Shown here one piece after another: positions 1,485-37,766 of a stretch of 64,000 nt of DNA. This DNA is from Candidatus Enterousia sp. Lineage in GTDB: Bacteria > Pseudomonadota > Alphaproteobacteria > Rs-D84. A program made the position numbers and the translations under genes. The stretch lies in contig JAZLBQ010000007.1 in the NCBI GenBank assembly GCA_045613785.1, positions 78,547-142,546 of the forward strand, given 5' to 3'. The notes below the pieces were generated by a model that saw only the letters and a program-made list of their open reading frames with translations, was not told the DNA's origin and did not search any database. Every line of letters begins with the position of its first letter. Positions within the stretch are counted from its first letter, which is position 1.

Positions 1485-1489
1485 CAAAC

Positions 1490-1511
1490 AAAACCGGGGA
1501 AACCCGGTTTT
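1490..1511. terminator. Bidirectional intrinsic terminator
   Basis: aaaaccggg-gaaa-cccggtttt inverted repeat between convergent genes. Confidence 0.75.
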
Positions 1512-3096: not shown

Positions 3097-3110
3097 TTTG
3101 TATCCTTTGT

Positions 3111-15543: not shown

Positions 15544-15608
15544 ATATTGCGATTTGGATATAAATCCTATATAATGACAAATGTTGATCATAACAAAAAG
15601 GAGAACAT

Positions 15609-15758
15609 ATGAAAAAAGTTATGTTAGCATTGTTTGCTGTTTTGACATTGGCAGCTTGCACTGGTTCATATAAATCAGGTAATTGTGAATATGATTTCTT
15701 GCTGCACAAAGATATTTCAGTTTCAAAAATCATCGGCAATATGACCGGCGGTTGTTAA
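15609..15758 (+). CDS. 49-aa lipoprotein, YhfL/DUF4223-like (below the ORF-track cutoff)
   Basis: MKKVMLALFAVLTLAACTG...NCEYDFLLHKDISVSKIIG resembles YhfL NCSYDYLLHPAISISKIIG; AAGGAG RBS. Confidence 0.75.
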   Translation: MKKVMLALFAVLTLAACTGSYKSGNCEYDFLLHKDISVSKIIGNMTGGC

Positions 15759-15760
15759 TA

Positions 15761-15842
15761 AAAATCCCCCGATTGGGGGATTTTTTTGTGCTTTTATTTT
15801 TTTTGCGACAAAATAAATACCCCACCATTAGGTGGGGATATT
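15761..15842. terminator. Two hairpin terminators between convergent genes
   Basis: aaaatccccc-gatt-gggggatttt and ccccacc-atta-ggtgggg. Confidence 0.75.
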
Positions 15843-15843
15843 A

Positions 15844-19677: not shown

Positions 19678-19789
19678 ATCTGTGCACCTTTTCTTATCCC
19701 ATTTATTATAGTTCTTTTTATGCAGATTTTCAATATTTACTATACTTTTGTGGCAAAAAAATTATATACTCGTCCCAAAGGGGAAAAGC

Positions 19790-20965: not shown

Positions 20966-21013
20966 GTGTTTGTTCTTATACAAATTGCCGTAAAAGTGAT
21001 TTAAAATACGCTT

Positions 21014-21697
21014 ATGAAGCTAAGCGTCAGAACATTTATGTTAAAAAGTCTGCCATACCTGATGTCCATTGCAGGTGGTGTAATTTTATATACCGGTGCG
21101 ATTGACAATGCCCCCAATGCAAATATCCGAGATTTAGTAATAAATGTATCTGCGTCATTGCTGTCAATTCCATTGGTGTTTTTGTTATATGATTACACTA
21201 ATTCCCGAATAAACAGTCAAATGAAAAAGACCCTTGCGAATAGCTTATCTGACAAATTAAATACGCTGATATTGAACATAATAATGACATTACGAGAATC
21301 GATGTCTATTCGGACGAAACTAACTCCAGAAAATTTGAACAGGATGCTGATATTGCGAGCACCAGAAATATCACGTCGTCAAAAAATGACACTACGCATA
21401 TTACAAGACCTCCATACATACCACGACAGTTTGGATACGTTATTATATCGGAACTCACAAAGTGATGTATTGACCCCGACCCAAGTCCAGATTTTATCAG
21501 GTTTAACACGTGATATAACACACTTGATAAACGAGAACAAATTTCGTCGGAACAAACATATTGCATCGAAATACACAGAAAACATAATGAATCACATCTT
21601 AGACTGGCTAGATTCTGATGCACTAGCAAGCATAACAATTCAGGCACATTTATCGCCAAACATAGTGAAAAAACCAGGAAAAACGAATAAAAAATAA
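21014..21697 (+). CDS. Hypothetical membrane protein (two N-terminal TMs)
   Basis: ORF length and hydrophobicity pattern. Confidence 0.65.
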   Translation: MKLSVRTFMLKSLPYLMSIAGGVILYTGAIDNAPNANIRDLVINVSASLLSIPLVFLLYDYTNSRINSQMKKTLANSLSDKLNTLILNIIMTLRESMSIRTKLTPENLNRMLILRAPEISRRQKMTLRILQDLHTYHDSLDTLLYRNSQSDVLTPTQVQILSGLTRDITHLINENKFRRNKHIASKYTENIMNHILDWLDSDALASITIQAHLSPNIVKKPGKTNKK

Positions 21698-21799
21698 AAA
21701 AGTATTATTTTTTCTTGCAATTTAAATTTTTTTATGTCAAAATATCGCCCGACCCTTGGGAAAAAGATAGAAATATTTTTGATTCCCAGGTCCGGTTTT

Positions 21800-21875
21800 G
21801 GGGACATAGCTCAGTTGGTAGAGCAAATGACTTTTAATCATTGGGTCCAGGGTTCGAGTCCCTGTGTCCCCACCA
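21800..21875 (+). tRNA. tRNA-Lys(TTT)
   Basis: GGGGACATAGCTCAGTTGG...CTTTTAA...GGTTCGAGTCCCTGTGTCCCCACCA. Confidence 0.96.
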
Positions 21876-21877
21876 GG

Positions 21878-21903
21878 AAATCCGCAGAAATCTGCGGTTT
21901 TTT
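21878..21903 (+). terminator. tRNA-Lys terminator
   Basis: ccgcaga-aa-tctgcgg followed by a T run. Confidence 0.75.
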
Positions 21904-21966
21904 ATTTTGTCCTAGTTGTCGAAAATACCAATTTGTGCTGTAAAAAAGCACGAAAAAGCGTGTTTT

Positions 21967-21996
21967 TGCACAAAGTTTGCACAAAATCTGCACAAA
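21967..21996. repeat. Three TGCACAAA direct repeats, 11-bp period (possible integrase arm-type sites)
   Basis: Copies at 21967, 21978 and 21989, about 90 bp downstream of tRNA-Lys. Confidence 0.6.
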
Positions 21997-24285
21997 TGCC
22001 CCTTTCAGACTGTGCATAATATTTACTTGGTCTTTGATTGCTTTGCTGATTGTTTTCTCACGTTCCTGCATAGTTTCCGTTGTAGATGGTATGATTTCGC
22101 CGTTTTCGTCACGTGGGTTCGTCATACTATCTCTTGCAGGACTGGATGGGATTGGTGGCAAAGTCATATTCCCATACCATACATTGAAGAAATCAACCGC
22201 TGACTGGTCTAATACTGGATGGACAATCATACCGTTTTCGTTTCTAAATCCAATCTGTGCGATAGATTTATACTTTTCAGGTATCCAGTTCAAGTATTCT
22301 GTCATTGGCAGTGTAGCACCATCAGGAACGGGTGCAAGACCAGTAATAACTGCTTCGGTCATCGTTGCGAATGTTTCCTGCTGACTGCGTGTCAATGTTT
22401 CCTGCTGTGGGTCTATGCCTAGAATACCGAATAAAGTGTTGGTTTCGTCAATCCACTGCTGACCGATAGTCAATTCCCCTTTGGATGCTTTCTTGAACAT
22501 AGAAAACGTATTGTCCAGCCAGAAATGTGCCATTTCGTGTGGCAGGGTCATTGTATTCATATTTCTACCCAGAACAATAACCTTTAACTCTGCATCATAG
22601 TATCCGTTCGCTTGTGTGCGTTGGAATAACTGGTTGCCCAATTGGTCAAATTTCTTACGTAATACTTTTACATCTTTATCGTTGAATATTACGAAGCAGC
22701 GACCATCCTGTTGACCGTCATAAGTAATCCCTTTAATGCCATGCTTTTCCAACAACTGTGATGCTTCTTTATCATTACCAACCAAGTTAGAAATACGGTC
22801 GTATATGTTGCCACCACTAAAGCCAAGTTCCCAATCTGTTATTTCTTGCTGAACAAAATCAACGCCGTCTTCGTGGTATTTATCAAACACAGGGTCTGCT
22901 AAAACTTCTTTCAGTTTTTCTTTTACAAATGCTGGCTGGTCTTTTAATAATTTCTGTTCATCTAGCAATACGTCCATTTCTGGTATATCTACTTCGTGAA
23001 CTTGCCCCTTTGGTTCTATGTATTTTAACAAATCAACATTCATATCTTCTAACAATGACAGTGTTTTTTTGTATGCTTGTATGTCTGCGTTGCCTTCAAG
23101 AAACCACTCTTCGCTATGTTCAGAACGTTTGGCAGTAGATAATAAATCTTCAATATCTTTTATGCGCGCGGTTATCCATCGTTCTGTTGCGTTTTTACCT
23201 GTGTCAGTTAAATGTTTTAATGTAAGTCCGTCAATATCTTTATACTTTGTTTCTGGCATTGGCTTACCATTATAAAAATAATTGTTTGAACCGCGTTTTT
23301 CGTCTGCAATAAATGTTTCACGATATTTTTCTGCAATCTGTGGGTCAAGTGCATAATACAATCCCCAGCCGTGTGCCTGTGCGCCTTCGCCTGTTCCTAT
23401 TGCTTCTAGCGAAGGTCTATCATAGTCAACACGAGAACCAGCATAGGCAGATTGGTATAAGACCCCTTCATTATATCTTGCAGGCTTGACTTTTTGTCTT
23501 AAAACACCTAAACTAATAGTAGTGATAGAACCAGTATCCAACCGCTTAAACGGTCTCGCTGCTGGTTCTATTTCTATTTCAGTGATTTTTTGCCCTGCAA
23601 ACACATTAGGATTATCCGCTCTGGTGGACACATCCACATATATTGCCACACTGTATGGAATGTTATCTATTACTAATGCAGAATGATATATATCTTGTCC
23701 TTTGACATTTGGGTGTCTTATATCCGATTTTCTAAAACCTGAATAATGTGCTTTTTGTAATATTTGTTTTATTTCTTGCAAAACAGCAAAGTATTCTTTT
23801 TTATGTCCCTTGGAAACAGCACGTTTTATTCCGGCGTTTGATAACAACACAATTTCTCCGTTGGATTTGATGCTTACATTCCTTTCATCGCCTAGAACCG
23901 ATTGTATATATTCTATCAGTTTCTTTTTAGTTCCAAATGCCTTTATTGTTTTTTCTGAAACCTTGACCGGTTCAATAGTTTCGCTATCATCAGCAATTTG
24001 TGGTCCTTCTTCTCTTTGAACAAGGTCTGTCTGTTCTAGAACCTGTATATCAACTGTATTATCAAACTGGTTCATTCTAGACATCAGGACTGCTGTTAAA
24101 CTTTTACTGGTGCAGTGGTCGCCGTCAAATGATTCAAGATTTTGTTCTTTTAACGCCTGATAATACAAATCGTCATCGTTGAATATACCTTTCTTGCCTA
24201 GACGATTATTGCCGTTTTTTTATTATTGCTTTTTTGCCCGTTTTTGTTAAATTCAAGCCAGGATAAAATAATACAGGTGGGAAAA

Positions 24286-24729
24286 ATGAAATATAATCTT
24301 GGTTTATTTGCGTGCGTGCTTATTCTGACGGGCTGTGCAGAATACAGTGTGATAAATAATTATTCGCTAGAAAAGTTTAATAATTCAGAAGTGCCAGTTT
24401 GCGTAAACTATCCCCAACGCGTCAAAAAGGTCGGTTATGCCTATCAGACAAAGGGGGTATGTGGCCCCATTCAAATTCCTGCTGAATACGAAGTCTTAGA
24501 TGGTGAATGTGATGTCCTTGCACCAGAGGTAGTATCCTATTCATACTGTCTGGCTCAAATGCCAAAGCCTGTTCATCTGGTTGAAAAACAAGAAAAGGAT
24601 ATGACAATTTGTTATGATCGAAACAATCATGTTGAATTGCCCATATCGTATTGTCAAAAGGATATAAACGTAATACAAAACACAAATGTTACTACTCGTG
24701 TTTCCCAGGTGTCGGCATTTGTTTGGTAG
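24286..24729 (+). CDS. Cys-rich lipoprotein
   Basis: MKYNLGLFACVLILTGC lipobox; several Cys. Confidence 0.7.
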   Translation: MKYNLGLFACVLILTGCAEYSVINNYSLEKFNNSEVPVCVNYPQRVKKVGYAYQTKGVCGPIQIPAEYEVLDGECDVLAPEVVSYSYCLAQMPKPVHLVEKQEKDMTICYDRNNHVELPISYCQKDINVIQNTNVTTRVSQVSAFVW

Positions 24730-24779
24730 TTCAGAATAAAAGCAATAAAACAAGGGCAGCGTTTGCTGCCCTGATTTTT

Positions 24780-26846
24780 TTACTTATCATATTCACCTTC
24801 GAATATAAACGGTGATGCGGTTGCAGATTTTCCACAACAGGTATTTGCACGGTATAAACTAAGTGTTTGTTTGGAACGAGTTGCCGCAACATAAAACAGT
24901 CGTCTTTCAGCCTCGTATGCTTCTGGACTGGTTTGAGATTGTGATTTAGGCCAGATTCCGTCGTCAACGTTCAAGATAAATACTTGGTCATATTGGCGAC
25001 CCTTTACACGCAGGGCAGTTGACAGTATAACACGGACATCATCTGAATTTTGCAGTGTTTCATTTTCTTCGGTCGCAAACTTTGCTTTTTCAATCGCTGC
25101 ATTAAAGTCGTCCAAGAATCCGTCATAGTCATCACCATATTTTGACGCAAAGTCCAACAAACTGCGTAATGGTGGCTCACGGAAATACAGGTCTTCCATT
25201 GAACGGCTGTAATTTTGTTTCAAGCCATCAAAATTATTCAACAGGCAATCCAATGTTTCATATACATTTTCTGCCGCCAAGAAATCCTGCAACAGACTTT
25301 CAAAGTTTTCGATAAAGGTGTCATCAAATATCCGAAATTCCTTTGGGTGTTCAGTTGCCAATGTTGCCAGTGCTGCCCGAATTGTTTCTGGTTTGGTGTT
25401 CATCTTCAAGAACGTCCGCCCGATTGTATTTCTGGCCTTTGGATATACCTGATTACGACAGGCTAAACAAACCAGTTCGATTAAATCCTCCCGGTTTATG
25501 CGATTGCCTTTTTGTTTTATTGCCATCACACGGTTCAGGCTGGCTGCGGCATCAGTCAGAAAGAATGCCAAGTCAGCACTGACTTTATAGTCAACTTGTT
25601 CTTTGGTCAACAGCACCTGATAAGGCAACAAACTGGCCTTTAATCTAGACAACACAGCGACAGTCTGATTGGTTTCTCTTGCAATTCGTTTAATTTCTGC
25701 CACAACGTCATCAATCATTTGTTCTTGGGTATCAAATACTTTCAGATTGATATTTGCCAAATCCATCGCAGTGCTTGATTTTACTGTTTTGGGTTCTCGA
25801 TTTTTATTGTATGAAATCAATTTCATTGACTTTTCAACAATATTTTTAGGCGAACGGAAATTTTCATCCAGTAAAAACGTAGTAAACATATTCCCAAATA
25901 TTTCATCAGGGTGCAGAATAAAATATGGTGCAGCCCCACGGAATTCATAAATAGACTGGTCGTCGTCGCCCACGATAATCAGCCCAGCATCATTTAATTT
26001 TTGCAGGTTTGAAATCAGCATTAAATCCAACGGGCTGGTATCTTGAAATTCATCGACAAAGATATAGTCTATTTTTGTTGCTCCGTTCCAACGTTCGCCA
26101 CGTTGAACTTTTTTGTTCAGTTCAATATTTGCAAAATATTTTTGGTCATCAAACGTATAGACGCCCATTGCTCTCATTTGTTCGCAGCAATCCCCCCAGA
26201 ATGGAATCCAATATTTTACGATGAATTCGTCTTTATCTTTGATTGTTTTTATAACACTGCTGCATTCCTGAATAAGCGTATCGACCAACGTGTTATAGTA
26301 TCTTTCCAAGTCAACTTTTTTTATAAATTTCAGGTGTTCATCATAAATTTTCTTGTCTTGTTCATAATTGCCGGAAAAAGCGGTGTGCAAAAAGCCAATA
26401 TTTTTGAATTGGTCAACGATATCCAGCATAGTCAGACATCTATTTTTATTAAATTTACCTGAAAACATTTTACCAAAAGTATCCTTGTATTCAGGTTTGT
26501 CGCCCCAAATTGGTTGCAAGAAGTTTGAAAAACAAAATTGTCTGTCTTTTAGTGTGTTTAGTATTTTTGGGTTTTTTAGCGTGTTTGTTTTTATATAGTT
26601 GTTTCCCCAACTGTTCAGTGTATTTGCCGAAACGCAGTCTTCGTCATTGCAACGTTGTCTAATTTCATCAGCTGCCCCACGTGTAAAGGTAAACATATGA
26701 ATACGGGCGCGATTTTTCTTTGCGATGATATTGCGTGCTTTTTCGATAATAGAAAAAGTTTTTCCGCACCCCGCTGGTGCCAGCAATCTGATAAACTTTG
26801 CATCACTGTTGATGAAATCTGATTGTGATTTAGTGTAATTCGACAT
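24780..26846 (-). CDS. UvrD/Rep-family SF1 helicase
   Basis: APAGCGKT, FTFTRGAA, VDEFQD, VGDDDQSIYEFRGA, NFRS, ERRLFYVAATR. Confidence 0.92.
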   Translation of the reverse strand: MSNYTKSQSDFINSDAKFIRLLAPAGCGKTFSIIEKARNIIAKKNRARIHMFTFTRGAADEIRQRCNDEDCVSANTLNSWGNNYIKTNTLKNPKILNTLKDRQFCFSNFLQPIWGDKPEYKDTFGKMFSGKFNKNRCLTMLDIVDQFKNIGFLHTAFSGNYEQDKKIYDEHLKFIKKVDLERYYNTLVDTLIQECSSVIKTIKDKDEFIVKYWIPFWGDCCEQMRAMGVYTFDDQKYFANIELNKKVQRGERWNGATKIDYIFVDEFQDTSPLDLMLISNLQKLNDAGLIIVGDDDQSIYEFRGAAPYFILHPDEIFGNMFTTFLLDENFRSPKNIVEKSMKLISYNKNREPKTVKSSTAMDLANINLKVFDTQEQMIDDVVAEIKRIARETNQTVAVLSRLKASLLPYQVLLTKEQVDYKVSADLAFFLTDAAASLNRVMAIKQKGNRINREDLIELVCLACRNQVYPKARNTIGRTFLKMNTKPETIRAALATLATEHPKEFRIFDDTFIENFESLLQDFLAAENVYETLDCLLNNFDGLKQNYSRSMEDLYFREPPLRSLLDFASKYGDDYDGFLDDFNAAIEKAKFATEENETLQNSDDVRVILSTALRVKGRQYDQVFILNVDDGIWPKSQSQTSPEAYEAERRLFYVAATRSKQTLSLYRANTCCGKSATASPFIFEGEYDK

Positions 26847-26999
26847 TTTGCAACCCTTGTTTTGTCCAGAAGTAATGTTATCCTAAATATTTTATATTTC
26901 TACAAATTTTTACGATTTTTGTCCTAGACAATGACATCAAATATTTTGTAGTCTATAAGCGTTATACAAAGAATCTTTTAAAATTCCCAGGGGGCAAAA

Positions 27000-28430
27000 A
27001 TGGCAAAGAAACAGACGAAAAATCAAGAAAAACCAAACAAGAAAAAATATTATGTCCGTGCTGCATTTTTTAGTGCGATTTTTGGCATTTTGTCATTGCT
27101 TGGAATGCTGTATCTAGGTGGGGCAGGTTGGTTGGACAGCTTTATTACTGCGGTATTTTGTGCTGGAATGATGTGGCTGTTGGTTCATGATCTGATTTTT
27201 CACAAGTATTGTGCATCTTGGTATCCGACAATTGGTATGTTGGGAACATTTGTTGGAATTTTTGTCGGATTACAAGGCCTAGATATTTCTGATTTTGCAA
27301 CAATTGTTGATAACTTGTCTAATTTGCTAGACGGCTTGAAACTGGCATTTATTACCAGTATTGTTGGTGTGGGGTTATCTGGCCTTCGAAAAATCTTGGA
27401 TTACATTGGTGTGAACAAGATTGATACCGATGTTCAGGAAACTTCTTTGTTTGAAATCTTGTCAAACGGTTCGAACGCATCGCTTGCCATCAGTGAAAAT
27501 ACCGCACAATTCAAAGGTGGCGATATTGCAGGGCAAATTGCTGCATTGCAGGCCGAATTTAAGCAGTTTTCCGAACGTGCTGCTGAAAATATGGGAAATC
27601 AGTTTGCAAATGCCCTGGGGAATATTGCAACGGATTTGAATACAAAAATATCGGAACAGTTTGGTGGGAATCTTGCCAAATTTGCAGATTCTGTTGATGT
27701 CCTGGTCGAATGGCAAAAACAGAACAAGGCCGATATGGATTCTTACATTGCCCAGTTAAAAGCCTATGCGGATACCTATAATGAAAAACTGGATAAACTA
27801 ACTGGTGCGGCTGACAGTCTGGAACAGATTATTACCCGTGCGAATGCCCAGATTGAAATTCTGGCCGGTGGCTTGACCGCAATGCAACAACTGGGCAAGG
27901 ATGCCGCTGATGCAATCCCTCAGGTTCAATCCCTGGTGGCTGAGGCAAAAAATACCTATGAACAGGTATCCACAATCCCTGCGGTTATCGAAAGTGGCCT
28001 TGAAACCGCCAACACCGATATTCAGACCAAGATGCAAGAAACGGCAAAACGTATTGTTTATGACGTGACCAAGGCTGCATCCGATGAAATGGGAAAAATC
28101 AGCGATGTTGCCACCAAAAATATCACAGGAATCGAAACGGCACTAGAAAAATTGGATAACGCTGTTCGCAACTTCTATGGCGGTGCCGGTGCGTTAAGCA
28201 CGCTAAAAGGGGAAATGGAACGCCTAAAAGCCAATCTAAGAGATGGTGGGAATTTCCTGTGTGGTGCAATGGAAAAAAGTGCAATAACTGTTTACGAAGA
28301 ATTGAATAAGTATTCGGAAACACAGGCAAATATTGAACGTTTGTTGACCAAGCTAACCGAACAAGAAACTGCAAAAGCCGCCCAGACTACCAAAAAAACA
28401 AAAACATCAAAACAAAAGCAAGAGGCCTAA
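27000..28430 (+). CDS. zorA: ZorA-like (MotA/TolQ-type TM domain with long cytoplasmic helical tail)
   Basis: PTIGMLGTFVGI, GLKLAFITSIVG, then a long coiled-coil tail including QFGGNL..F..SV..L.EWQ. Confidence 0.85.
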   Translation: MAKKQTKNQEKPNKKKYYVRAAFFSAIFGILSLLGMLYLGGAGWLDSFITAVFCAGMMWLLVHDLIFHKYCASWYPTIGMLGTFVGIFVGLQGLDISDFATIVDNLSNLLDGLKLAFITSIVGVGLSGLRKILDYIGVNKIDTDVQETSLFEILSNGSNASLAISENTAQFKGGDIAGQIAALQAEFKQFSERAAENMGNQFANALGNIATDLNTKISEQFGGNLAKFADSVDVLVEWQKQNKADMDSYIAQLKAYADTYNEKLDKLTGAADSLEQIITRANAQIEILAGGLTAMQQLGKDAADAIPQVQSLVAEAKNTYEQVSTIPAVIESGLETANTDIQTKMQETAKRIVYDVTKAASDEMGKISDVATKNITGIETALEKLDNAVRNFYGGAGALSTLKGEMERLKANLRDGGNFLCGAMEKSAITVYEELNKYSETQANIERLLTKLTEQETAKAAQTTKKTKTSKQKQEA

Positions 28431-28433
28431 TAA

Positions 28434-29165
28434 ATGCTGTTAAAAAATCATGATGATTCATCGCATTTCATATCGCTGTCAGACATTATGACAGCCTTGA
28501 TGATGGTCTTTATGTTTATTTCTGTGGCAATTATTACCCAGATTCAAAAGGAAAACGTATCAGGCCTGCGTGAATCCCAGCAAAAACGTCAACAACACCT
28601 TGCAGCAACGATGATTGATGCTGTTGACAGCAAACTGGATCGTTGGGGGGCCAGTATTGATGCCGATAATCTGACTATAACTTTTGTGGATTCTGCTGGC
28701 ACAGGTGCGGTATCTAGCGGTGGCAGTATTGCGGATTTTCGTTCCCGGACATTGTTTGATGTCGGCAGTTCTGAACTTAGTCCTGAATTTAAGCAGACGC
28801 TTTCTGAATTTTTCCCTGTTTATATCAAATGGGTTCAAAAGAACAAAGACCTGATTCAGGAAATTCGTATCGAAGGTCATGCGGATTCCACGGGCAAGGC
28901 TGGTCAAACCGAACGTGAAAGTTATTTCTTTAATATGGCGCTGTCCCAGGCACGCACAATCAGTGTGTTGGAATATTGTATGACCCTGCCGAACTTTACA
29001 AATACTGATTTTGAAAATATGAAGGAATTTATAACCGCCAACGGTTTCAGTTTTTCCCACGTGATAAAGGATGCCAGTGGTCGTGAAAATCGTGCTGCAT
29101 CACGTCGTGTTGAATTTCGTGCGTTGCCAAAAAGTGTATTCCAAACCAAGTCAGGGGATTTGTAA
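28434..29165 (+). CDS. zorB: ZorB-like (MotB/OmpA peptidoglycan-binding)
   Basis: ISLSDIMTALM (conserved Asp), IRIEGHADS, NMALSQAR, SRRVEF. Confidence 0.88.
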   Translation: MLLKNHDDSSHFISLSDIMTALMMVFMFISVAIITQIQKENVSGLRESQQKRQQHLAATMIDAVDSKLDRWGASIDADNLTITFVDSAGTGAVSSGGSIADFRSRTLFDVGSSELSPEFKQTLSEFFPVYIKWVQKNKDLIQEIRIEGHADSTGKAGQTERESYFFNMALSQARTISVLEYCMTLPNFTNTDFENMKEFITANGFSFSHVIKDASGRENRAASRRVEFRALPKSVFQTKSGDL

Positions 29166-30355
29166 TGTCAGGTATAAAAATGACCGATGTCGGTGAATTT
29201 GATGCTTTAAAGCCTGTTGTTGACCGTTTGCACGAATTGGCCAGGCGGGTTGGTGCCCCTGATGTCTATGCCGAAATCCCGGAAACTTTTTATGGCAGCC
29301 TGGACGAATTGGTTAACGATGGATATCTGGTCGCCCCACGGCAGGACGACAAGGGAAATTTTGTCCCGACAACGACAGGTCAGGTCTTGCGTAATCGTGA
29401 TGGTGACGTTGTGTTTTTGTATATCCCAGATTCATCAAATGTTCCCCGTGATGAAAAAAAACGTAATCGTATTCATATGTATTGGTGCGGTCATTTGACC
29501 CGGGGCCTGAATGAAAAACGTCAGGATCGTTATTGTGGCACGGTTGATGTTTCCGACAGTGGATATTTCTGCATGGAAAACGATGCAGTTGTTCGCATGT
29601 TGCCGTGTAAAAATTGCTATGATTATGCACATCGCTATCGTGATTGCGACTATGGCACGATTGACAAGTTCAAATACAAAAAATTTGCCACCGAAAACAG
29701 TTTAGATGCAAAACGCAAGGCCATTAAATCAACTGTTGGCAATGGTGTTGACGCAACACCAATTTATGGGTGTGCAAATTGTGATTTTACAACCACTGAC
29801 CCTGATGAACTGGACCCAAAATATCTGTTATGCCCGACCTGTTTTGCGATGGAGCAAATATTTTTACCGCTTCGCAGTGCCAGAACACTGGACGACTTGC
29901 GTGATTGGTTTACAAACACAGGAACCAAGGATTTACGTTATGGCAATGGTCAGACCCCACTAATGTATCTGGTTCGTCATAATTCACGCCCAAAACTTAT
30001 CAAGGCAATGGTTGAAACATATGGCTGTGATGTAAACGCCACTGACAACGATAACAAAAGTGTTCTGATGCACTTTGTAGAAAGCAATAACCTTCGTCCA
30101 TATTCTGACTTGTCTGATGAACTTGATACTTTGCGTTCATTAGGGGCAAATGTAAAGCATGAACACCGTGTTCCTGACAAGATGCTGGGGCATGCAAACA
30201 AAATGGCTGTTGGATATGCCGGGGAAAATACAGAATTACGTCGTGCACTGCTGGCATGGGCTGGACGCTATGGTATGTCCAAGGCTGATAACAGAAGAAG
30301 GGTTTCTTACAGTGTTGACCGTTCTGGATTTCGCTCACGTGATGACGATGATTGA
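29165..30355 (+). CDS. ZorE-like protein with degenerate HNH zinc finger and C-terminal ankyrin repeats
   Basis: VFLYIPD, RIHMYWC, DRY, PCKNC match the ZorE-type N-domain; CANC-16 aa-CPTCF lacks the catalytic His; GQTPLMY...GCDVNATDNDNKSVLM...GANV are ankyrin motifs. Confidence 0.7.
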   Translation: MSGIKMTDVGEFDALKPVVDRLHELARRVGAPDVYAEIPETFYGSLDELVNDGYLVAPRQDDKGNFVPTTTGQVLRNRDGDVVFLYIPDSSNVPRDEKKRNRIHMYWCGHLTRGLNEKRQDRYCGTVDVSDSGYFCMENDAVVRMLPCKNCYDYAHRYRDCDYGTIDKFKYKKFATENSLDAKRKAIKSTVGNGVDATPIYGCANCDFTTTDPDELDPKYLLCPTCFAMEQIFLPLRSARTLDDLRDWFTNTGTKDLRYGNGQTPLMYLVRHNSRPKLIKAMVETYGCDVNATDNDNKSVLMHFVESNNLRPYSDLSDELDTLRSLGANVKHEHRVPDKMLGHANKMAVGYAGENTELRRALLAWAGRYGMSKADNRRRVSYSVDRSGFRSRDDDD

Positions 30356-30424
30356 CAATAACGCTATACATTAGTCGGCAGTCTATGCTATGATTTTTTT
30401 GTCGGATTTCAATAGGGGATTTCA

Positions 30425-31453
30425 ATGGCACAACGCAAGGCAAAGAAAATTCGTGATGACAACAAAAAATTCGGTAAATTACTGGATTTGATTCAGGCAC
30501 TCAGCAGTTATTCCAACGGCATGACCTATGACCAGATTATGGAATTGATGGAATACAGTGATGTTCGCCAGGCAAATCGTGATATCGGATTTATCAAGAC
30601 TCGTTTTGCCGACACCTTTGCCGAAGAACGTGATCGTGAAAACTATCGGTTAAAGCGTTTCCGGTTGTATAATCCTGACGGCCTGCCACTGGAAAATTTA
30701 ACGGACGAAGAACTGGTGGCTCTGGCGGCGGCAATACAATCGATAAACAATCAGGATATCAGGATTCCACTGGAAAAATTACAGTATAAAATAAATCAGT
30801 TCTTGGTTGCGAACAAGCGTCGCAAAATAGCCCGCTATATGGATTTGGACAGCATTGTTTTATCACGTGCTGCATCGCATATTCCTCATCCGCATATAAA
30901 AACAGATGAAAATATAATTCATCAAATCGACAATGCAGTTTTGTCATTTACCAAGGTTTTGATAACATATACCTATGATGACGGCGGCACTCGGCAATAC
31001 AAGGTTCGCCCACTAGGATTCTTATACGGAAAAAATAATAATTACCTGGTTGCATACCGTGATGATGACCCAAAACTTGTCCGATCGTATGTTCTGGGGA
31101 ATATCAGCCAGGTTATCCCCACTGACGAGTCTTTTGATGCAGGCGATTTTGATATTGAATCTTATGCAAAAAAGTCTTTTGGGATATATCACTCGCCAAA
31201 TGGACCATTTGATATAGAATGGCGTGCATCGCCAGATGTTGCCAACGCAGTTATGCGATATACATTTCATCCTGAACAAACTTTGACCAAGAATCCAGAC
31301 GGCTCGGTCAGTATTCGTTTTCGTGCAGATGGTTTTATGGAAATGGCACTGTATCTGTTCCAGTGGCGTGGCAAAATCGTCCCGGTTGCCCCAACTGAAT
31401 TGGTCGAAGAGTATCGTAAACTATTGACCACCGCTTTGGAATCAATATCATAA
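30425..31453 (+). CDS. WYL-domain transcriptional regulator (wHTH-WYL-WCX)
   Basis: N-terminal HTH (RQANRDIGFIK); ITY...VRPLGFLY...YLVAY...RSYVLGNI; SFGIY; FHPEQ. Confidence 0.88.
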   Translation: MAQRKAKKIRDDNKKFGKLLDLIQALSSYSNGMTYDQIMELMEYSDVRQANRDIGFIKTRFADTFAEERDRENYRLKRFRLYNPDGLPLENLTDEELVALAAAIQSINNQDIRIPLEKLQYKINQFLVANKRRKIARYMDLDSIVLSRAASHIPHPHIKTDENIIHQIDNAVLSFTKVLITYTYDDGGTRQYKVRPLGFLYGKNNNYLVAYRDDDPKLVRSYVLGNISQVIPTDESFDAGDFDIESYAKKSFGIYHSPNGPFDIEWRASPDVANAVMRYTFHPEQTLTKNPDGSVSIRFRADGFMEMALYLFQWRGKIVPVAPTELVEEYRKLLTTALESIS

Positions 31454-31523
31454 TATTATTCTCAAACGTCCAATTTTGTCCGACGATATTGTTATATTAG
31501 TCTTGTAAACAACGGGAACAGAT

Positions 31524-32081
31524 ATGAACAAATCGAAATTATTTACATTGTTTGTCATTTTTATCGGTGTGATGTTGGGGTATTTTATGACCGCACGTCC
31601 TACATGTCCAGATGTTCAGGAATGTGACGATTTCGCCTATGATGGTGATTTTGTTGCTCAGTATTATCTGGAAAACAAGGATAAATATTGTTATTCGTAT
31701 TGGGTCCCACACGGTGGTTTATGGCAAGAAATATGTTTTGACACCGCTGCCCAGTGTCAGGCAGAACTGGCTGCCGATTGGCACAAGACGAACACAGAAA
31801 CATGCTATATCCCGTCCATTGTGCCAGCCTGGTGTGTTGGTGATATCCAAACAGGCGAATATCGCACAGACGACGTTGTCGGCGAAGAATATCAGCTTTT
31901 GGCGACAATTTGTGTTCAGGATAAAAACACCTGTGAACAAATGCGTCGCTATCAATTGCCATACAGCAAATTTGAGTGTGTTGGCAGAATGGTATTCCAG
32001 CATGAAAGCGAAACATCATATCTGACCCCTGATTACGAACTGGAATCAATAATAAAAAATAACGAAAACAGCCCAAGGTAA
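31524..32081 (+). CDS. Cys-rich exported or membrane-anchored hypothetical protein
   Basis: N-terminal TM/signal sequence; about 10 Cys. Confidence 0.65.
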   Translation: MNKSKLFTLFVIFIGVMLGYFMTARPTCPDVQECDDFAYDGDFVAQYYLENKDKYCYSYWVPHGGLWQEICFDTAAQCQAELAADWHKTNTETCYIPSIVPAWCVGDIQTGEYRTDDVVGEEYQLLATICVQDKNTCEQMRRYQLPYSKFECVGRMVFQHESETSYLTPDYELESIIKNNENSPR

Positions 32082-32086
32082 AAAAT

Positions 32087-33298
32087 ATGCACGAAATCAA
32101 ATGTCCAAATTGTGGAAAAACATTCAGCACAGACGAAGCCGCCTATGCTGCGATTTTGAAACAAGTTCACAACAGTGAATTTGACAAAGCACTGGCCGAA
32201 CGCATTGACCAGTTTAACCGTGAAAAGCAGGACGCACTGACTCTGGCTGCTGCCCAGGCAGAACAGGCCAAAACCACAGCCCTGGCACAACAACAAAAAC
32301 AGATTTCTGAATTGAACATCAAGGTTCTAGAATTGGAAAAAGGCAAAGATCTGGCGGTTGCTCAGGCGATTGCAAAAATACAGTCAGACCTAGCTGACAA
32401 GGATAAAAAGATTGTCGAATTAAATGGTCTGATTGAAAGCACAAAACACAAAGGTGCTCTGGACGTTCAGTCGCTTAAAAATGAATACGAGGCAAAACTG
32501 CGTATCAAGGACGAAGAAATTGCTCTTCACAAAGATATGAAGACCAGAATGTCAACCAAGATGGTTGGCGAAACCTTGGAACAGCATTGCAGTATTGAAT
32601 TTGAACGCCTGCGTGCCACTGCGTTCCAGCACGCAGAATTTGGCAAAGATAACGATGCAGCATCTGGCAGCAAGGGCGACTTTATCTTCCGTGATTTTGA
32701 TGCCGATGGTAATGAATACATTTCAATTATGTTCGAAATGAAAAATGAATCTGATGCGACCACATCAAAACATAAAAACGAACACTTTTTCAAGGAATTA
32801 GACAAAGACCGCAACGAAAAGAAGTGTGAATATGCTGTTCTGGTATCACTTTTGGAACAAGACAACGAACTTTATAACAGTGGTATCGTCGATGTTTCGC
32901 ATAAATACGACAAAATGTATGTAATTCGCCCACAGTGCTTTATTCCAATGATAACACTGTTACGTAATGCCGCACAGAAATCAATCGATTACAAGCGTGA
33001 AATAACACGTCTAGAACGTGCCAGCATTGATGTGTCGAATTTTGAAAATGCAATGAACGCCTTCAAAGACGGTTTTTCAAGAAATTGCAAAGATGCTGGC
33101 GACCGCTATGAAGAAGCGATAAAAAACATAGACGACATCATCAAAAAATTGGAAAAGACCAAAGATGCCTTGCGTTTATGGAACAAACATCTGGGAACAG
33201 CCGCAAATAAATTGGAAGATTTAACGATAAAAAAACTAACACGTGACAATCCGACAATGGCTGCTAAATTTGCTGCTGCCGCCACATCAGACGACTAA
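32087..33298 (+). CDS. DUF2130 family protein (copy 1)
   Basis: IKCPNCG, coiled coil, [36 protein letters not shown]. Confidence 0.9.
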   Translation: MHEIKCPNCGKTFSTDEAAYAAILKQVHNSEFDKALAERIDQFNREKQDALTLAAAQAEQAKTTALAQQQKQISELNIKVLELEKGKDLAVAQAIAKIQSDLADKDKKIVELNGLIESTKHKGALDVQSLKNEYEAKLRIKDEEIALHKDMKTRMSTKMVGETLEQHCSIEFERLRATAFQHAEFGKDNDAASGSKGDFIFRDFDADGNEYISIMFEMKNESDATTSKHKNEHFFKELDKDRNEKKCEYAVLVSLLEQDNELYNSGIVDVSHKYDKMYVIRPQCFIPMITLLRNAAQKSIDYKREITRLERASIDVSNFENAMNAFKDGFSRNCKDAGDRYEEAIKNIDDIIKKLEKTKDALRLWNKHLGTAANKLEDLTIKKLTRDNPTMAAKFAAAATSDD

Positions 33299-33395
33299 AG
33301 GCAGGGGGCAGGCATAAAAACATAACAACACGATTGACATTTTGTCTTTTGGTTGCATAATATTCCTTGTATCTAGAATATCAGGGGAATATCTA

Positions 33396-34193
33396 ATGAA
33401 CGAAACGCCACGTGTATCTGTTTTAATGCCTGCATACAATGCACAGAATTTTATTGGCCAGGCAATTGAATCTATATTGACCCAAACGTTTCGTAATTTT
33501 GAATTTATTATCATCAATGATGGGTCAACCGATAAAACCCCTGAAATAATTCAGTTTTATGCCGACAGGGATAAACGAATTAGGTTTATAAATAATCCGG
33601 AAAATCAGGGGCTAATTGCGGTCTTGAATCAGGGACTTGATATTTGCCGTGGGGAATATATTGCCCGTATGGACAGTGATGATATTTCTTTGCCTGGTCG
33701 TCTAGAAGCCCAGGTGAAATACATGGACTTTCATCCTGCGTGCGGTGTTCTTGGAACTTCCCAGGTTTTGTTTGGTGATATAAATCAACCTGTGTTTTAT
33801 CAACCTGTTGTTCACATCCTGGACATAATGACTTATAACCCTGTTTCTCATCCAACAGTGATGTTTCGTAAATCTGTTATCGACGAACACAACATCCGTT
33901 ATAACCCAGATTACAAACATTGCGAAGACCTAGAGCTCTGGACCCGAATGATTCATATAACCCAGATTCATAATTTGCAAACTATCTTTTTATATAATCG
34001 CATAACCGCAGGCAATGTTACTACTACACACTGGGAGCATCAGCAGAAATTGACCCAGAAAATACGTCAACAGGTCAAAGATTACATTTTGGGAAATCCA
34101 GAAGTTATAAGCCAGATTTTATCATCTTTACAAACTGAAAAACCACGTATTATGGTCGTAAGTTTAGATGTTGTCGCTTTGAATAAAAAATAG
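33396..34193 (+). CDS. Family 2 glycosyltransferase
   Basis: VSVLMPAYNA, INDGSTD, ARMDSDD, HPTVMFRK, EDLELW; overlaps the mcrC 3' end by 30 bp. Confidence 0.9.
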   Translation: MNETPRVSVLMPAYNAQNFIGQAIESILTQTFRNFEFIIINDGSTDKTPEIIQFYADRDKRIRFINNPENQGLIAVLNQGLDICRGEYIARMDSDDISLPGRLEAQVKYMDFHPACGVLGTSQVLFGDINQPVFYQPVVHILDIMTYNPVSHPTVMFRKSVIDEHNIRYNPDYKHCEDLELWTRMIHITQIHNLQTIFLYNRITAGNVTTTHWEHQQKLTQKIRQQVKDYILGNPEVISQILSSLQTEKPRIMVVSLDVVALNKK

Positions 34194-35459
34194 TTCACGC
34201 AAATCCGATATAATATTATTTTGATTTTCCTGTTTGGTTAAATCTTTGTTCAAATCAAATGTTGCTGTTCTGATAAGTGGGGACTCTGCATCGTTATCCA
34301 TATTCAGATAATATTTATTTGCAATAGTGTTTTCTTCATCTGCTCGTGGATATAGTAATATTGCATTTTCAGACTGATGAATTTTGCAGTATGTTACAAC
34401 CTGAAAAACGTCGGCTGTATCAAATCTAGATTTTGTTTTATACTTTGTATCCAACACTATTCCTGATGGAATCTCTTTGGTTTTTACAAACATATCAACG
34501 TATGTATTTCCATATTTGCGATCGTTTTCGATACAGCGTAATAAACGTCGTCCTCGTTGATACTCAATGGAATCGATTCCAATTTTATCCTTGTTTCTTT
34601 TTATAAATTCGAACACAAATTCTTCGAACAATATGTTCATATCCCACAACAGTGCGATATTTTCAATATTATTCTTGGACATATCCACAGACATTTGTCC
34701 GATAAACATTTTTGCCAACATCAATGGCACTTCAAAGCACTTTTGACTTCTGTTCAGCTGTATTTTTTCAACGTCAGAATATTTCAAATGTTTAAAAGAA
34801 ATATCGGCATAGTTATTTACAATAAATCCTAAAATTTTCTTTGTTTTTGGATTTTTTGTAATGCTGCCCAGACATCTTGAAACGAATAAAAAAGTCTGAT
34901 TTAATAAATTATCTTCGCTAAATTCGTCGAAGTTGCAGTAGAATTTGGCCTGGTTTGCACAGTTTTGTTTAATATGCTCCGTTAAATTTAATTTGCCACG
35001 CACGCACGCAATGTTTTCGGCTTGTCTAACATAGTTCTTTGGAACTGAATATTTCAACGAATTAAACAATGATTGTGCATAAAACAGCATCAGTGTTTCA
35101 ATAAAATCAGCCTGCATTTGCCCCATCAGTGCAGAATCCATGCTGTTGACATTTAACTGCCGTGTCCAGCCCAACATAAAGATAAGATTTTTCAGTATTT
35201 GATCTCGATTGCTAGTGTCCTTGGCCAGCAGTTTAGGCAAGATTTCAATTTGTATATTTTTATACTTCAAAACCCCAACAAAATTTGTTGCCCTTATGCC
35301 ATTTTGTTCAAGTTTGATAGCATCCTGTAATTTTTGCTTTGCCAAGAAACGTTCCAGACCGTCAGCGAATGCCGGTTTTTGCAAAGATTCTGCAATAATG
35401 TCCGGCATATCATCAAACTTGACATAGTCATATTCAAAGACGTTCAGACTTTGTCCCAT
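34164..35459 (-). CDS. mcrC: McrC-family restriction nuclease subunit
   Basis: FVGV..IEILPK, EDNLLNQ, DMNILFEEFV, VLDTKYK, DVFQV.TY, LLYP. Confidence 0.9.
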   Translation of the reverse strand: MGQSLNVFEYDYVKFDDMPDIIAESLQKPAFADGLERFLAKQKLQDAIKLEQNGIRATNFVGVLKYKNIQIEILPKLLAKDTSNRDQILKNLIFMLGWTRQLNVNSMDSALMGQMQADFIETLMLFYAQSLFNSLKYSVPKNYVRQAENIACVRGKLNLTEHIKQNCANQAKFYCNFDEFSEDNLLNQTFLFVSRCLGSITKNPKTKKILGFIVNNYADISFKHLKYSDVEKIQLNRSQKCFEVPLMLAKMFIGQMSVDMSKNNIENIALLWDMNILFEEFVFEFIKRNKDKIGIDSIEYQRGRRLLRCIENDRKYGNTYVDMFVKTKEIPSGIVLDTKYKTKSRFDTADVFQVVTYCKIHQSENAILLYPRADEENTIANKYYLNMDNDAESPLIRTATFDLNKDLTKQENQNNIISDLRELFFIQSDNI

Positions 35460-35462
35460 AAG

Positions 35463-37766
35463 TTATTCCGCCTGTTCAGTTTGTTCTGCCAACTTGTTGA
35501 TTGCTTCAACAAAACGATTGTTGTCAAAATTTTCAATTTTTTCGAACTGCCAAAATTCATCTTCTGAAATCAGATTTTTAACAGACTTGTCAGCGATATT
35601 GCGTTTGATCACAAAATCATTTCCCAACACAATTTTCAACTTGTCCCAATCGCCCCAGAAATATTCCTTCATCAGTGGCATAATTTCATTGAACCAAACA
35701 TCTTTTAGCATTTGGACAGATTTACATTTTTTAAAGAAACTATGTCCAATCAAGTGGTCTTCGTCCAACAGAGCGTTTATTTTGTTGTTTAGTTCTTCAA
35801 AGACCGCCCGAACTTTGATTCCATCAATTTCTTGGTCAATCAGATTTGCATCTGGCAACACAGGTATAAACTTAAAGCGTCTTCGCAGTGCAATATCAAT
35901 TGCCGCAATAGAACGGTCAGCGGTATTCATTGTTCCGATAATATACAGGTTTTGTGGCACACCAAAAGACTCCTGACTGTATGGCAACGTAATAGTTAGC
36001 TCTTCTTCTGCCCCGATGCGTTTGGTGCTTTCTATCAGTGTAATCAATTCTCCGAAAATCTTGGAAATATTTCCACGATTGATTTCATCAATCACCAAAA
36101 CGTAATTTTTGTTCTGTGGTGCATCACCCGTGATTAAACTGTTCAAGACCTTTATATCGATGTCCTTTTTGTCTAATTCGTAAACAGACTGCATACTGAA
36201 CTTTTTACCCTTAACAATAGCACTAACGGGTATGGTTTCATGTGAAATCCAGTTTACATTTCTAAAATGTTTATATTCGATATCCGCTTCTGGATTGAAA
36301 ACATAGTCGCCCGTTATTTCTGCGATTGCAGCAATTTCACTTTTCCCGTTTGCGATTAAAACAATGTCGCCTGGTTTCATTTCACAACGCAGGAAATTCA
36401 TCGCTGTTCTTGCAAAATTATCCAGTTTATTATCCTTGACCAGTTTTTCCACATCACGACGATTTTTCGCATTTGAAAAATCAATATCTCCGCCATAGTT
36501 GTTCGCAATCACACTATTTTCCATACAGAATTCAAATACGTCATTCTCTATTCCTGACCCCAAAGACATTTTGAATATGCGTGCATTTGCAGGGATTTCT
36601 TTTTTGCTGTATTTCTGATGGTCTGCCTTTGCATTTGCACGTTCTGCAATTTTTTTGAATATTCCGTCAACACGTCTGTATCCAAGGCTGGTTTCGTTGT
36701 CCAGAACAGGGCGAATTCCTTCCACAAAGTCTTCGTATGACATAGATTGGTGGAACGTTACAAATTCAACACGACCTTGCTTTTTCAAATCATTGAATTT
36801 TCCGTGCAGTTCATTATATCTTTCTTTTGAGATATTAAAGCCATAATCCCCACCATCATTTTCCAGGATTTCCATCGCCTTGATAATGGTAGAATATGTT
36901 TTTCCTGTTCCTGGTGCTCCATATAAAATTTGATTTAATGGTATTTGTGATGAATTTGTTTCTGGCATTTTGTTCCCCCGTGTTTTTTTATTGCCAATCG
37001 TGGTCATGGAATTCTCTTTGTCTGGTAATCCAATATCATCTCCAACAATCGTTTCAAATATGCCCAACGGCACCTTACATTCCCGTGCAAATACGGCGAC
37101 CTCGCCAACTGTTGCATAGATGTCATCGTGCCAGGTCAGCCCCAGCATATCGCATGCACGTTTGAAATAATCCTTCGCATACCATGACGACATTTTTTTG
37201 ATGTGAACAATACGTAAATATTTTCTAATCCATATTTGTTCATAAAATTTTTCGGGCAATCCCAGTTTGTTACACTTATTCTGAAAAGTCGTCCCCAGTT
37301 TTTTGTATTCTTCAACCGTTTTTAGTTCGTTGCGTTCGATTTCATCTGATGCAAAAACCAGAAAATCACGAATTTTTTCAGCGATTTTTCTTGCCTTGTT
37401 TATATCTATTGTGTCGCTTGCAAGTTTTTTTGCATCGGTTGGATTTTTTTTCCAATAATACCATTGGTTATTGTCTTTTGATATCAGGTATCCCAATTTT
37501 GCTTTTGGATAGCCCTGTATGTTGCCAAAAAAACGTGTCAAATTATCATCATATTCCAAGCGATGCATCATATCGTCCATGTTTCCATTTTGAAAACAAA
37601 GTCTGTTCAGCAAATCGGCTGGTTTCATATTTTTTAATTTGTCTGGGCCAAAATCTTTCAAGAATTCTGCACGATATTTTTTTATGCTCTTACTAGCGTC
37701 GTCATATTTTGCACGATTTGTTTTATACAGCTGAATTATTTGATTTTTGACTTCCAGATTGGCCAT
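35463..37766 (-). CDS. mcrB: McrB-family AAA+ GTPase with extra N-terminal and inserted specificity domains
   Basis: ILYGAPGTGKT, VTFHQSMSYEDFVEG, IDEINRGN, TMNTADRS, LRRRF, IGHSFF. Confidence 0.93.
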   Translation of the reverse strand: MANLEVKNQIIQLYKTNRAKYDDASKSIKKYRAEFLKDFGPDKLKNMKPADLLNRLCFQNGNMDDMMHRLEYDDNLTRFFGNIQGYPKAKLGYLISKDNNQWYYWKKNPTDAKKLASDTIDINKARKIAEKIRDFLVFASDEIERNELKTVEEYKKLGTTFQNKCNKLGLPEKFYEQIWIRKYLRIVHIKKMSSWYAKDYFKRACDMLGLTWHDDIYATVGEVAVFARECKVPLGIFETIVGDDIGLPDKENSMTTIGNKKTRGNKMPETNSSQIPLNQILYGAPGTGKTYSTIIKAMEILENDGGDYGFNISKERYNELHGKFNDLKKQGRVEFVTFHQSMSYEDFVEGIRPVLDNETSLGYRRVDGIFKKIAERANAKADHQKYSKKEIPANARIFKMSLGSGIENDVFEFCMENSVIANNYGGDIDFSNAKNRRDVEKLVKDNKLDNFARTAMNFLRCEMKPGDIVLIANGKSEIAAIAEITGDYVFNPEADIEYKHFRNVNWISHETIPVSAIVKGKKFSMQSVYELDKKDIDIKVLNSLITGDAPQNKNYVLVIDEINRGNISKIFGELITLIESTKRIGAEEELTITLPYSQESFGVPQNLYIIGTMNTADRSIAAIDIALRRRFKFIPVLPDANLIDQEIDGIKVRAVFEELNNKINALLDEDHLIGHSFFKKCKSVQMLKDVWFNEIMPLMKEYFWGDWDKLKIVLGNDFVIKRNIADKSVKNLISEDEFWQFEKIENFDNNRFVEAINKLAEQTEQAE

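Follow-up and report, generated by a model that had tools for sequence, protein, structure and literature searches.

What remains for a Zorya defence system to do when its nuclease has lost the active site? The question is raised by positions 24,780 to 32,081 of a 64,000-nucleotide stretch, here called the window, from Candidatus Enterousia sp. (GenBank assembly GCA_045613785.1, contig JAZLBQ010000007.1, positions 78,547 to 142,546 of the forward strand), a gut alphaproteobacterium with a small genome (G000; 1.04 Mb, 96% complete). Two Zorya motor genes, zorA and zorB, are followed by a third gene, whose product is, as judged from alignments, a derivative of the nuclease ZorE, devoid of the HNH catalytic residues and fused to ankyrin repeats. 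A helicase gene, found on the other side of zorA, is co-inherited with these three. It is highly probable that the four genes form a module with a dead HNH site. The fuller reading, that the module is a type II-derived Zorya subtype, mobile and accessory, in which an adaptor and a helicase replace the nuclease by the steps proposed in the last section, is given a probability of about 0.6. The features involved are the following.

24780 to 26846, minus strand: helicase, UvrD/GajB-like, superfamily 1 (SF1), 688 amino acids (Pfam UvrD-helicase and UvrD_C, PADLOC GajB)
26847 to 26999, no strand: divergent intergenic region between the helicase gene and zorA, 153 base pairs (bp), presumed to hold promoters
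27000 to 28430, plus strand: zorA, MotA-like channel subunit with a long C-terminal tail, 476 amino acids (PADLOC ZorA2, Pfam MotA_ExbB)
28434 to 29165, plus strand: zorB, MotB-like, with transmembrane Asp D17 and an OmpA-like peptidoglycan-binding domain, 243 amino acids (PADLOC ZorB2, Pfam OmpA)
29165 to 30355, plus strand: third gene, 396 amino acids, DUF8245 domain, HNH-remnant zinc ribbon and ankyrin repeats (PADLOC ZorE2, homologues, substitution rates)
29282 to 29719, plus strand: DUF8245 domain (the ZorE N-domain), about residues 40-185, zinc ligands H104, C108, C148 and C151
29756 to 29854, plus strand: HNH remnant, about residues 198-230, CANC, 16 residues, CPTC, F227 (alignments and residue map)
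29855 to 30268, plus strand: ankyrin-repeat domain, about residues 231-368, four helix pairs (Pfam, phmmer, Foldseek)

Three Zorya types have been published, defined by their soluble partners (PMC11946911). ZorA and ZorB form a 5:2 complex (ZorA5B2), an ion-driven, peptidoglycan-anchored motor that detects damage to the envelope as a phage enters. Recruitment of the soluble effectors requires the ZorA tail; ZorE, a DNA-nicking enzyme, moves to the membrane when the cell is infected (PMC11946911, PMC11890865).

The motor pair of the window looks intact. When the 14 proteins encoded between 19748 and 37766 were scanned with Pfam and PADLOC profiles, ZorA matched PADLOC ZorA2 across residues 63-389 (E 1.6e-34) and Pfam MotA_ExbB (26.4 bits, cut-off 22.9), while ZorB matched PADLOC ZorB2 (E 7.3e-62) and Pfam OmpA (E 4.1e-11). 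The transmembrane Asp of ZorB is D17, within the motif SLSDIM: profiles and residue thus agree with an earlier note on this DNA, made by a model from the letters and their open reading frames (ORFs), where both genes were described as intact. The equivalog cut-offs set by NCBIfam for Zorya II are all missed by a wide margin (ZorA2 66 vs 700 bits, ZorB2 127 vs 400, ZorE 15 vs 600), which indicates that the E. coli system is only distantly related. The third gene is tightly coupled, as had also been noticed: its ATG and the zorB stop codon have base 29165 in common, pointing to translational coupling.

A ZorE derivative without its HNH site

The motifs that the earlier note had listed for the third protein are all present in its translation: FLYIPD (84-89), IHMYWC (103-108), DRY (121-123) and PCKNC (147-151) in the N-domain, followed by CANC (203-206), 16 residues, CPTC (223-226) and F227 in the remnant. 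Similarity to PADLOC ZorE2 (E 1.3e-6) is confined to residues 77-175, corresponding to profile positions 65-173 of 283 (about 38%); relatives of the protein match the ZorE profile better (6e-16). The NCBIfam ZorE model finds no match in the genome of the window at E <= 0.001, and the Pfam DUF8245 model (PF26739), listed for a near-identical homologue, has no match in the local Pfam scan of the window. The N-domain, named DUF8245 in PMC13192584, nevertheless aligns with annotated ZorEs over its whole length. All 28 DUF8245 proteins that were aligned share its zinc ligands H104, C108, C148 and C151. H104 corresponds to H90 of E. coli ZorE, a His of the zinc site kept in all of nine aligned sequences; replacement of that residue (H90A) abolishes Zorya II defence (PMC13192584).

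The HNH region was compared by aligning the third protein and six full-length homologues to two annotated ZorEs, from an E. coli and a Psychrobacter plasmid, both located through their ZorB protein. The two CxxC pairs that frame the HNH site of ZorE align in the ankyrin-bearing proteins. In all seven of these, the stretch between the pairs is about 15 residues shorter than in the ZorEs, and a gap stands at the positions of E. coli Y189, H223, H225, H226, K231 and N234; Y189F, H226A and K231A each abolish Zorya II defence (PMC13192584). The position of N238 is Pro in the window protein, while that of H247 is variable (F/H/S/Y/S/D/I across the seven members), with Phe in the window. Pfam HNH has no match in the third protein; two reference ZorEs match PF01844. 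The earlier description of a nuclease-dead ZorE is therefore borne out, as far as its catalytic residues are concerned.

The zinc finger is followed by ankyrin repeats, of which the earlier note had seen about 150 residues. Pfam Ank_3 (24.7 bits, cut-off 22.3) and Ank (21.2 bits, cut-off 21.1) match at residues 257-309, phmmer finds designed ankyrin proteins (E 7e-7), and Foldseek aligns an AlphaFold2 (AF2) model with four-repeat designed ankyrin proteins over about 138 columns (E 6e-6, template modelling score 0.6, target-normalised): about four repeats are thus indicated. In the model of the whole protein (mean predicted local distance difference test, pLDDT, 78) the N-domain is compact, the zinc module is small and made of strand and helix, and the ankyrin part has four helix pairs. 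Ankyrin residues 231-330 reach a pLDDT of 86-96; the charged tail after the ankyrin domain, up to residue 396, is predicted to be disordered (below 50 at 370-396). A second model, of residues 36-235, has a pLDDT of 85.7, with DUF8245 mostly at 90-97.

A complete HNH site in a structural model had been named as evidence that would speak against a dead nuclease; the AF2 model and the structure searches add no active site. When residues 188-235 were compared with 48,161 chains by VIA-align, the best matches were zinc ribbons and zinc fingers, all weak (Z 2.0-2.9), and nothing above Z 2.9 was found by the wide search. For DUF8245, Foldseek gave no match in the PDB at E <= 0.001, and VIA-align of residues 36-185 nothing above Z 2.5: no known fold may be assigned to the predicted domain, and such negative searches do not amount to a new fold. 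A solved ZorE structure was not found, as E. coli ZorE had no matches and the third protein (P0001) matched ankyrin proteins only; the ESM Atlas gave no usable match.

The helicase and the split sister form

The helicase matches Pfam UvrD-helicase (PF00580, E 1.3e-28) and UvrD_C (E 7.2e-26). Among defence models PADLOC GajB scores E 3.5e-40 to 5.5e-40, and the best 25 of 46 PADLOC families are all GajB or RTasHel. Residues G26, G28, K29 and T30 of the Walker A motif and the DEFQD motif (265-269) are invariant in 32 helicase homologues; profile scans detected no nuclease domain. Two further UvrD-family genes are present in the genome of the window, indicating that the helicase is accessory; that it is the housekeeping UvrD was rejected, given these two copies and its sporadic distribution.

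In all of the five loci examined for the fused form, the helicase gene adjoins the system. These are the window, its 97%-identical relative (G169, locus L004), two further species of the genus, G094 (locus L020) and G159 (L022), and a metagenome contig (L007). In three of them (G094, G159, L007) the helicase, 689-692 amino acids long, is the fourth gene of a colinear series, zorA, zorB, third gene, helicase, on the same strand and 3-16 bp after the third gene; in the window and in G169 the same helicase is inverted, on the other side of zorA. Between the two lineages identities are 38-41% for ZorA, 56-58% for ZorB, 37-38% for the third protein and 61-62% for the helicase. From locus to locus the flanking genes change and the four genes remain linked: the helicase is co-inherited with ZorAB and the third gene. 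Among the candidate partners proposed earlier, the UvrD helicase is thus the one backed by synteny, five of five adjacent, three within an operon, and diverged in step.

By locus, the search for relatives recovered only the 97%-identical relative among genome contigs and one locus (L007) among metagenome contigs; among viral contigs 18 pattern matches were found, none of them a relative. Four more clusters of third genes and clusters of close helicase homologues have longest contigs of equal size (28475, 5615, 15323 and 24234 bases), a circumstantial fit with linkage of the two genes.

The surroundings of the fused operon were also recorded. On L007 its neighbours include a zeta toxin as well as genes for phage capsid and capsid assembly (1267-3432, 18965-19822), and in G159 (L022 13328-15344) it adjoins a serine recombinase with a DUF2924 gene. 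Such neighbours fit carriage on mobile elements.

The distribution of DUF8245 was evaluated by profile search in 328 genomes of the order, of which nine matched; within the genus, matches were found in 7 of the 256 genomes other than G000. The fused form is present in three of these (G094, G159, G169), a canonical type II system with an HNH-bearing ZorE in one (G024), and a split form in the remaining three (G001, G093, G073). All three split-form loci encode an SNF2 helicase, a free ankyrin protein of 190-205 amino acids, ZorA, ZorB and a protein of 169-216 amino acids consisting of DUF8245 only. The SNF2 helicase matches the DrmD profile (E 8e-179), as well as the ZorD helicase profile (E 1.6e-39). 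The suggestion that the helicase is an analogue of ZorD thus gains support from the split form of these sister species; the helicase of the window is itself UvrD-type. Long residence of the system, also suggested earlier, is not supported: DUF8245 genes occur in only 7 of 256 genomes, in three architectures and near recombinase or phage genes.

These observations bear on the most serious competing explanation, that ZorAB and the ankyrin protein are one unit, and the UvrD-like helicase a separate defence gene sharing the same island. Defence genes cluster anyway, and the island of the window contains McrBC-like genes as well; the helicase lies there on the opposite strand; its wider family, at about 31-35% identity, counts 394 proteins at E <= 1e-30 from many phyla, most of which cannot be Zorya-linked, and close helicase clusters (at least 46% identity, 28 rows) exceed the third-gene clusters found. 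Yet chance neighbourhood does not account well for a helicase gene placed 3-16 bp after the third gene in three of the five loci, for divergence in step while the flanks change, nor for the split form, where ZorAB and DUF8245 are again joined to a helicase and an ankyrin protein. Independence of the helicase is therefore considered unlikely.

The four-gene reading is further specified by a maximum-likelihood tree of 28 DUF8245 domains, rooted at the midpoint only and including several long branches. Fused-form and split-form domains group in a single clade (ultrafast bootstrap 99, Shimodaira-Hasegawa-like approximate likelihood ratio test 98), apart from the HNH-bearing ZorEs; inside this clade the split-form domains make a subclade of their own (96/96). 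The combination of a missing HNH site, an ankyrin module and a helicase seems, accordingly, to have arisen once; afterwards, the ankyrin module seems to have been fused or split off, and the helicase exchanged.

Outside the order, class and phylum samples of 400 other genomes each were searched. DUF8245 is found in 12 genomes of the class sample: the full HNH motif is present in eight, HVTY replaces HVHH in two more, another encodes DUF8245 alone at a locus without ZorA, and the last (G443) encodes DUF8245 and a separate small HNH ORF. In the phylum sample eight of nine have the full motif, the ninth match lying at a contig end. Among the genomes searched, ankyrin fusion is confined to this genus.

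Several single loci deserve mention. G443 (L042 9566-12213) encodes on one strand ZorA, ZorB, a DUF8245-only protein of 168 amino acids and a separate HNH_3 ORF of 94 amino acids, either a naturally split ZorE or a frameshift; the separation of the two ORFs indicates that DUF8245 is modular. The two HVTY proteins (G403, L034; G571, L035) are ZorE-like, 386 amino acids long, with intact CxxC pairs; in them the HNH site may have been weakened a second time, independently. The split form of G093 (L023 9790-18049) and the type II system of G024 (L009 9417-14138) occupy the same chromosomal site, bounded by an IMS/DinB-family polymerase gene and an ADP-ribosylglycohydrolase gene, which looks like cassette exchange at a hotspot; upstream of its SNF2 gene, G093 retains one more ZorE gene, with HNH (15571-16335).

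Residual activity, regulation and selection

Full-length relatives of the third protein were recovered by a profile-free exhaustive search at 25-41% identity (P0005, P0006, P0008, P0009, P0011, P0028, and also P0155), along with N-domain-only proteins of 169-173 amino acids; a coarser search yielded one match for the whole protein and two for residues 40-190. Across the 12 full-length members compared, neither the four zinc ligands of the N-domain nor the four remnant Cys vary. The complete set of invariant columns comprises H104, M105, W107, C108, G133, F135, C148, C151, Y163, G164, F169, F174, the four remnant Cys, W248 and N273.

This pattern leaves little room for a third protein that is still a nuclease, through a non-canonical site, or that recruits one of the host, with the helicase only assisting. 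Zorya II does cooperate functionally with a helicase-nuclease in E. coli, where DruE assists ZorE (PMC13192584); in the model the zinc ribbon keeps the strand-and-helix layout, acidic residues lie between the CxxC pairs (DPDELD), and the beta-beta-alpha-Me enzyme Hpy99I is found among the weak structural matches to the remnant (Z 2.0, root mean square deviation 2.7, 38 aligned). The segment between the CxxC pairs is, however, variable in both sequence and length, the experimentally essential HNH residues are all gone, and no conserved His, Asn, Asp, Glu or Lys was counted outside the zinc ligands, although N273 is listed as invariant. Retained or borrowed cleavage is considered improbable.

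A different output, signalling, is suggested by the gene that starts 69 bp past the third gene. Its product matches Pfam WYL (E 9e-7), Pfam WCX (E 4.3e-7) and PADLOC WYL (E 8.5e-20), and could in principle receive ZorAB activation through the ankyrin repeats, it or some other factor then switching on transcription of the neighbouring defence genes. The genes on this side of the system are listed here.

30425 to 31453, plus strand: WYL and WCX protein, 342 amino acids (Pfam WYL and WCX, PADLOC WYL)
31524 to 32081, plus strand: ORF of 185 amino acids, without family match (ORF list)
31524 to 33298, plus strand: span of the 185-amino-acid ORF and the DUF2130 protein that accompanies it (E 3.9e-79)
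34164 to 35459, minus strand: McrC-like gene (domain scan)
35463 to 37766, minus strand: McrB-like AAA_5 gene (domain scan)
37860 to 38864: DUF7192 gene, forming with the next a second pair, after the McrBC-like genes
38870 to 39805: AAA_5 gene, paired with DUF7192

A homologue of the WYL protein, 48% identical over 323 amino acids, is found in G094, as part of a 482-amino-acid fusion with a domain of the uracil-DNA-glycosylase family (WYL-WCX-UDG), 2 kb upstream of zorA (L020 4127-5575). A WYL-domain gene was also observed on an E. coli IncY plasmid (L005 8020-8445), about 1.2 kb downstream of zorE. No WYL gene occurs within the roughly 8-10 kb read in G159 and L007, nor at the three split-form loci: the linkage holds in two of four distinct species-level loci, and the helicase is the constant neighbour. 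WYL proteins beside defence systems are usually repressors, responding to ligands or DNA damage. Signalling as the output is thus hardly likely, in spite of the WYL genes in the window, in G094 and on the E. coli plasmid. The WYL protein, named earlier among possible partners, keeps this role in part, through its homologue in G094; as judged from its partial linkage, it is probably an accessory, optional transcriptional regulator.

DUF2130, another of the partners proposed, recurs only in the 97%-identical G169. The same holds for the 185-amino-acid gene, GT2 and McrBC, and all four were rejected as parts of the system. The McrBC-like genes and the DUF7192/AAA_5 pair, between 34164 and 39805, do indicate that the Zorya variant sits in a defence island. 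In the region of regulatory sites, no inverted repeats of at least 10 bases were found in the intergenic region between zorA and the helicase gene, nor upstream of the WYL gene; promoter-like sites (24 vs 23.1 in shuffles) and terminator-like sites (11 vs 9.0) are not enriched.

On the other side of the helicase the following gene is present.

21800 to 21872, plus strand: tRNA gene, adjoining an ORF of 776 amino acids

The 776-amino-acid ORF, on the minus strand, carries an LPD3 'large polyvalent protein' domain and overlaps the tRNA call (21800-24168 region). As the near-identical locus of G169 (L004) lacks this ORF, a recent insertion or deletion beside the tRNA is indicated.

Selection was evaluated from the ratio of nonsynonymous to synonymous substitution rates (dN/dS). 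For the third gene it is 0.05-0.06 among G094, G159 and L007, and 0.19 for G000 vs G169; over all four genes (zorA, zorB, third gene, helicase) values lie between 0.01 and 0.24. Low dN/dS and invariant zinc ligands and Cys indicate that the third protein is maintained, rather than decaying, and a pseudogene, or relaxed selection, was rejected, purifying selection being evident. Confinement to this genome with relaxed selection, which the earlier note had set as a reason to drop its proposal, is not what was found: four species of the genus carry the fused architecture, and metagenomes contain it as well. Loss of the HNH site is old and conserved. That the locus is a type II Zorya in decay, or an inactive remnant of one, is very improbable, since, for all that the nuclease site is lost and all three proteins fall below the NCBIfam cut-offs, the reading frames are all intact, dN/dS is low in all four genes, and relatives of the fused protein with as little as 25-41% identity keep its Cys and His invariant. 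Two loci with such an appearance (G051, G358), having ZorB- and DUF8245-like genes and no clear ZorA, do occur in relatives.

Relation to known systems and proposed mode of action

Zorya type II is said to have been described by Doron in 2018 as ZorA2-ZorB2-ZorE. The window resembles it in the motor genes, whose best PADLOC matches are of ZorA2 and ZorB2 type, and in the coupled third gene, with the zinc site of the ZorE DUF8245 domain and both HNH CxxC pairs. It differs in the deletion of the HNH core (H226, K231, N234) and the replacement of H247 by Phe, in the ankyrin repeats standing in place of the C-terminal part, in the helicase, here an added, co-inherited gene, and in scores that miss the equivalog thresholds of NCBIfam. 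Mariano et al. 2025 (PMC11890865) and PMC13192584 served for the comparison.

Type I consists of ZorAB, ZorC and ZorD, an SNF2 helicase-nuclease (Hu et al., PMC11946911). Like type I, the variant pairs the motor with a soluble, helicase-containing effector set, and the SNF2 helicase of the split form matches ZorD profiles; unlike it, the helicase of the window is SF1 and UvrD-type, with no nuclease domain detected, and its ZorA and ZorB are nearer to type II profiles. PADLOC found no ZorC among the 14 scanned proteins, and ZorD is not among the best 25 of 46 PADLOC families for the helicase. Likewise, ZorF (DUF3348) and ZorG (DUF2894) of type III are absent from the Pfam matches of those proteins (19748-37766).

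Resemblance to Gabija is limited to the helicase, a UvrD-type ATPase in a defence island with GajB models as its best defence matches; GajA, the OLD-family nuclease, is not found among the neighbours scanned, and the partners are ZorAB and an ankyrin protein. The WYL protein is like WYL-domain defence regulators of the BrxR/CapW type, in having WYL and WCX at the edge of a defence operon, and unlike them in its partial linkage to the system (two of four species-level loci) and in the fusion of the G094 homologue to a uracil-DNA-glycosylase-family domain. No ankyrin- or UvrD-linked Zorya form was found in published full text, though supplements, which lie outside that search, may list one. The earlier remark, that this architecture is not a described Zorya type, is consistent with this result. 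The survey in PMC13192584 retained only ZorEs 'containing a recognisable endonuclease domain', and surveys so limited would have skipped this clade.

For the preferred reading, the adaptor and helicase module, the following steps are proposed. DUF8245 would be the module coupling ZorE-type proteins to activated ZorAB, to DNA, or to both, with its zinc site kept here. In this clade the nuclease would be reduced to a bare zinc ribbon, with a structural role, and the output passed to the helicase, held or activated through the ankyrin repeats: a UvrD/GajB-like SF1 enzyme in the fused form, SNF2 in the split form. The helicase would then work near the membrane, on phage DNA that is entering or being replicated, which it would unwind, clear of proteins or keep from replicating; alternatively, it might burn nucleotides in a GajB-like manner, or expose DNA to host nucleases. 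The WYL protein would be an optional transcriptional regulator of the module. The part assigned to the ankyrin repeats, suggested by gene linkage and domain content, is the step on which we would put slightly less than even odds. The earlier proposal of an output rewired towards protein recruitment gains from HNH loss, ankyrin fusion and helicase synteny, while physical recruitment through the ankyrin domain is a conjecture.

Some observations weigh against this reading. The five fused-form loci come from only two diverged lineages within a single genus and do not count as five independent observations, and the synteny count covers those five, the contexts of P0005, P0008, P0009, P0011 and P0028 falling outside it. 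In the window the helicase is divergently transcribed and stands outside the operon, and, with no nuclease domain detected, it leaves the step that stops the phage unexplained. Between the fused and the split form, the ankyrin domains share no more than a generic likeness (26% over 69 amino acids). The third protein scores weakly on ZorE profiles (PADLOC 1.3e-6; NCBIfam 15 vs 600 bits), and scattered His and Asn between the CxxC pairs in a few family members (P0009, P0011) may mean residual activity in some of them.

A broader generalization is offered tentatively, and as a rather doubtful one: DUF8245 might be a general plug, joining soluble effectors to the Zorya II motor, and the variant a nuclease-free, fourth type of Zorya with two interchangeable helicase outputs, running from rotary motor through ankyrin adaptor to a DNA helicase that clears or stalls phage DNA without cutting it.

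The variant bears on how the ZorA tail signals to soluble partners. A natural ZorE with the N-domain and both zinc sites, no nuclease, and ankyrin repeats and a helicase at its side suggests that DUF8245 is a coupling module, and that Zorya can operate through something besides its own nuclease. In the compact operons of the G094 and G159 type, about 5.4-5.6 kb long, motor, adaptor and effector are separable by single deletions. If the reading is true, the clade would provide a natural separation-of-function mutant, through which roles of ZorE other than nicking could be addressed.

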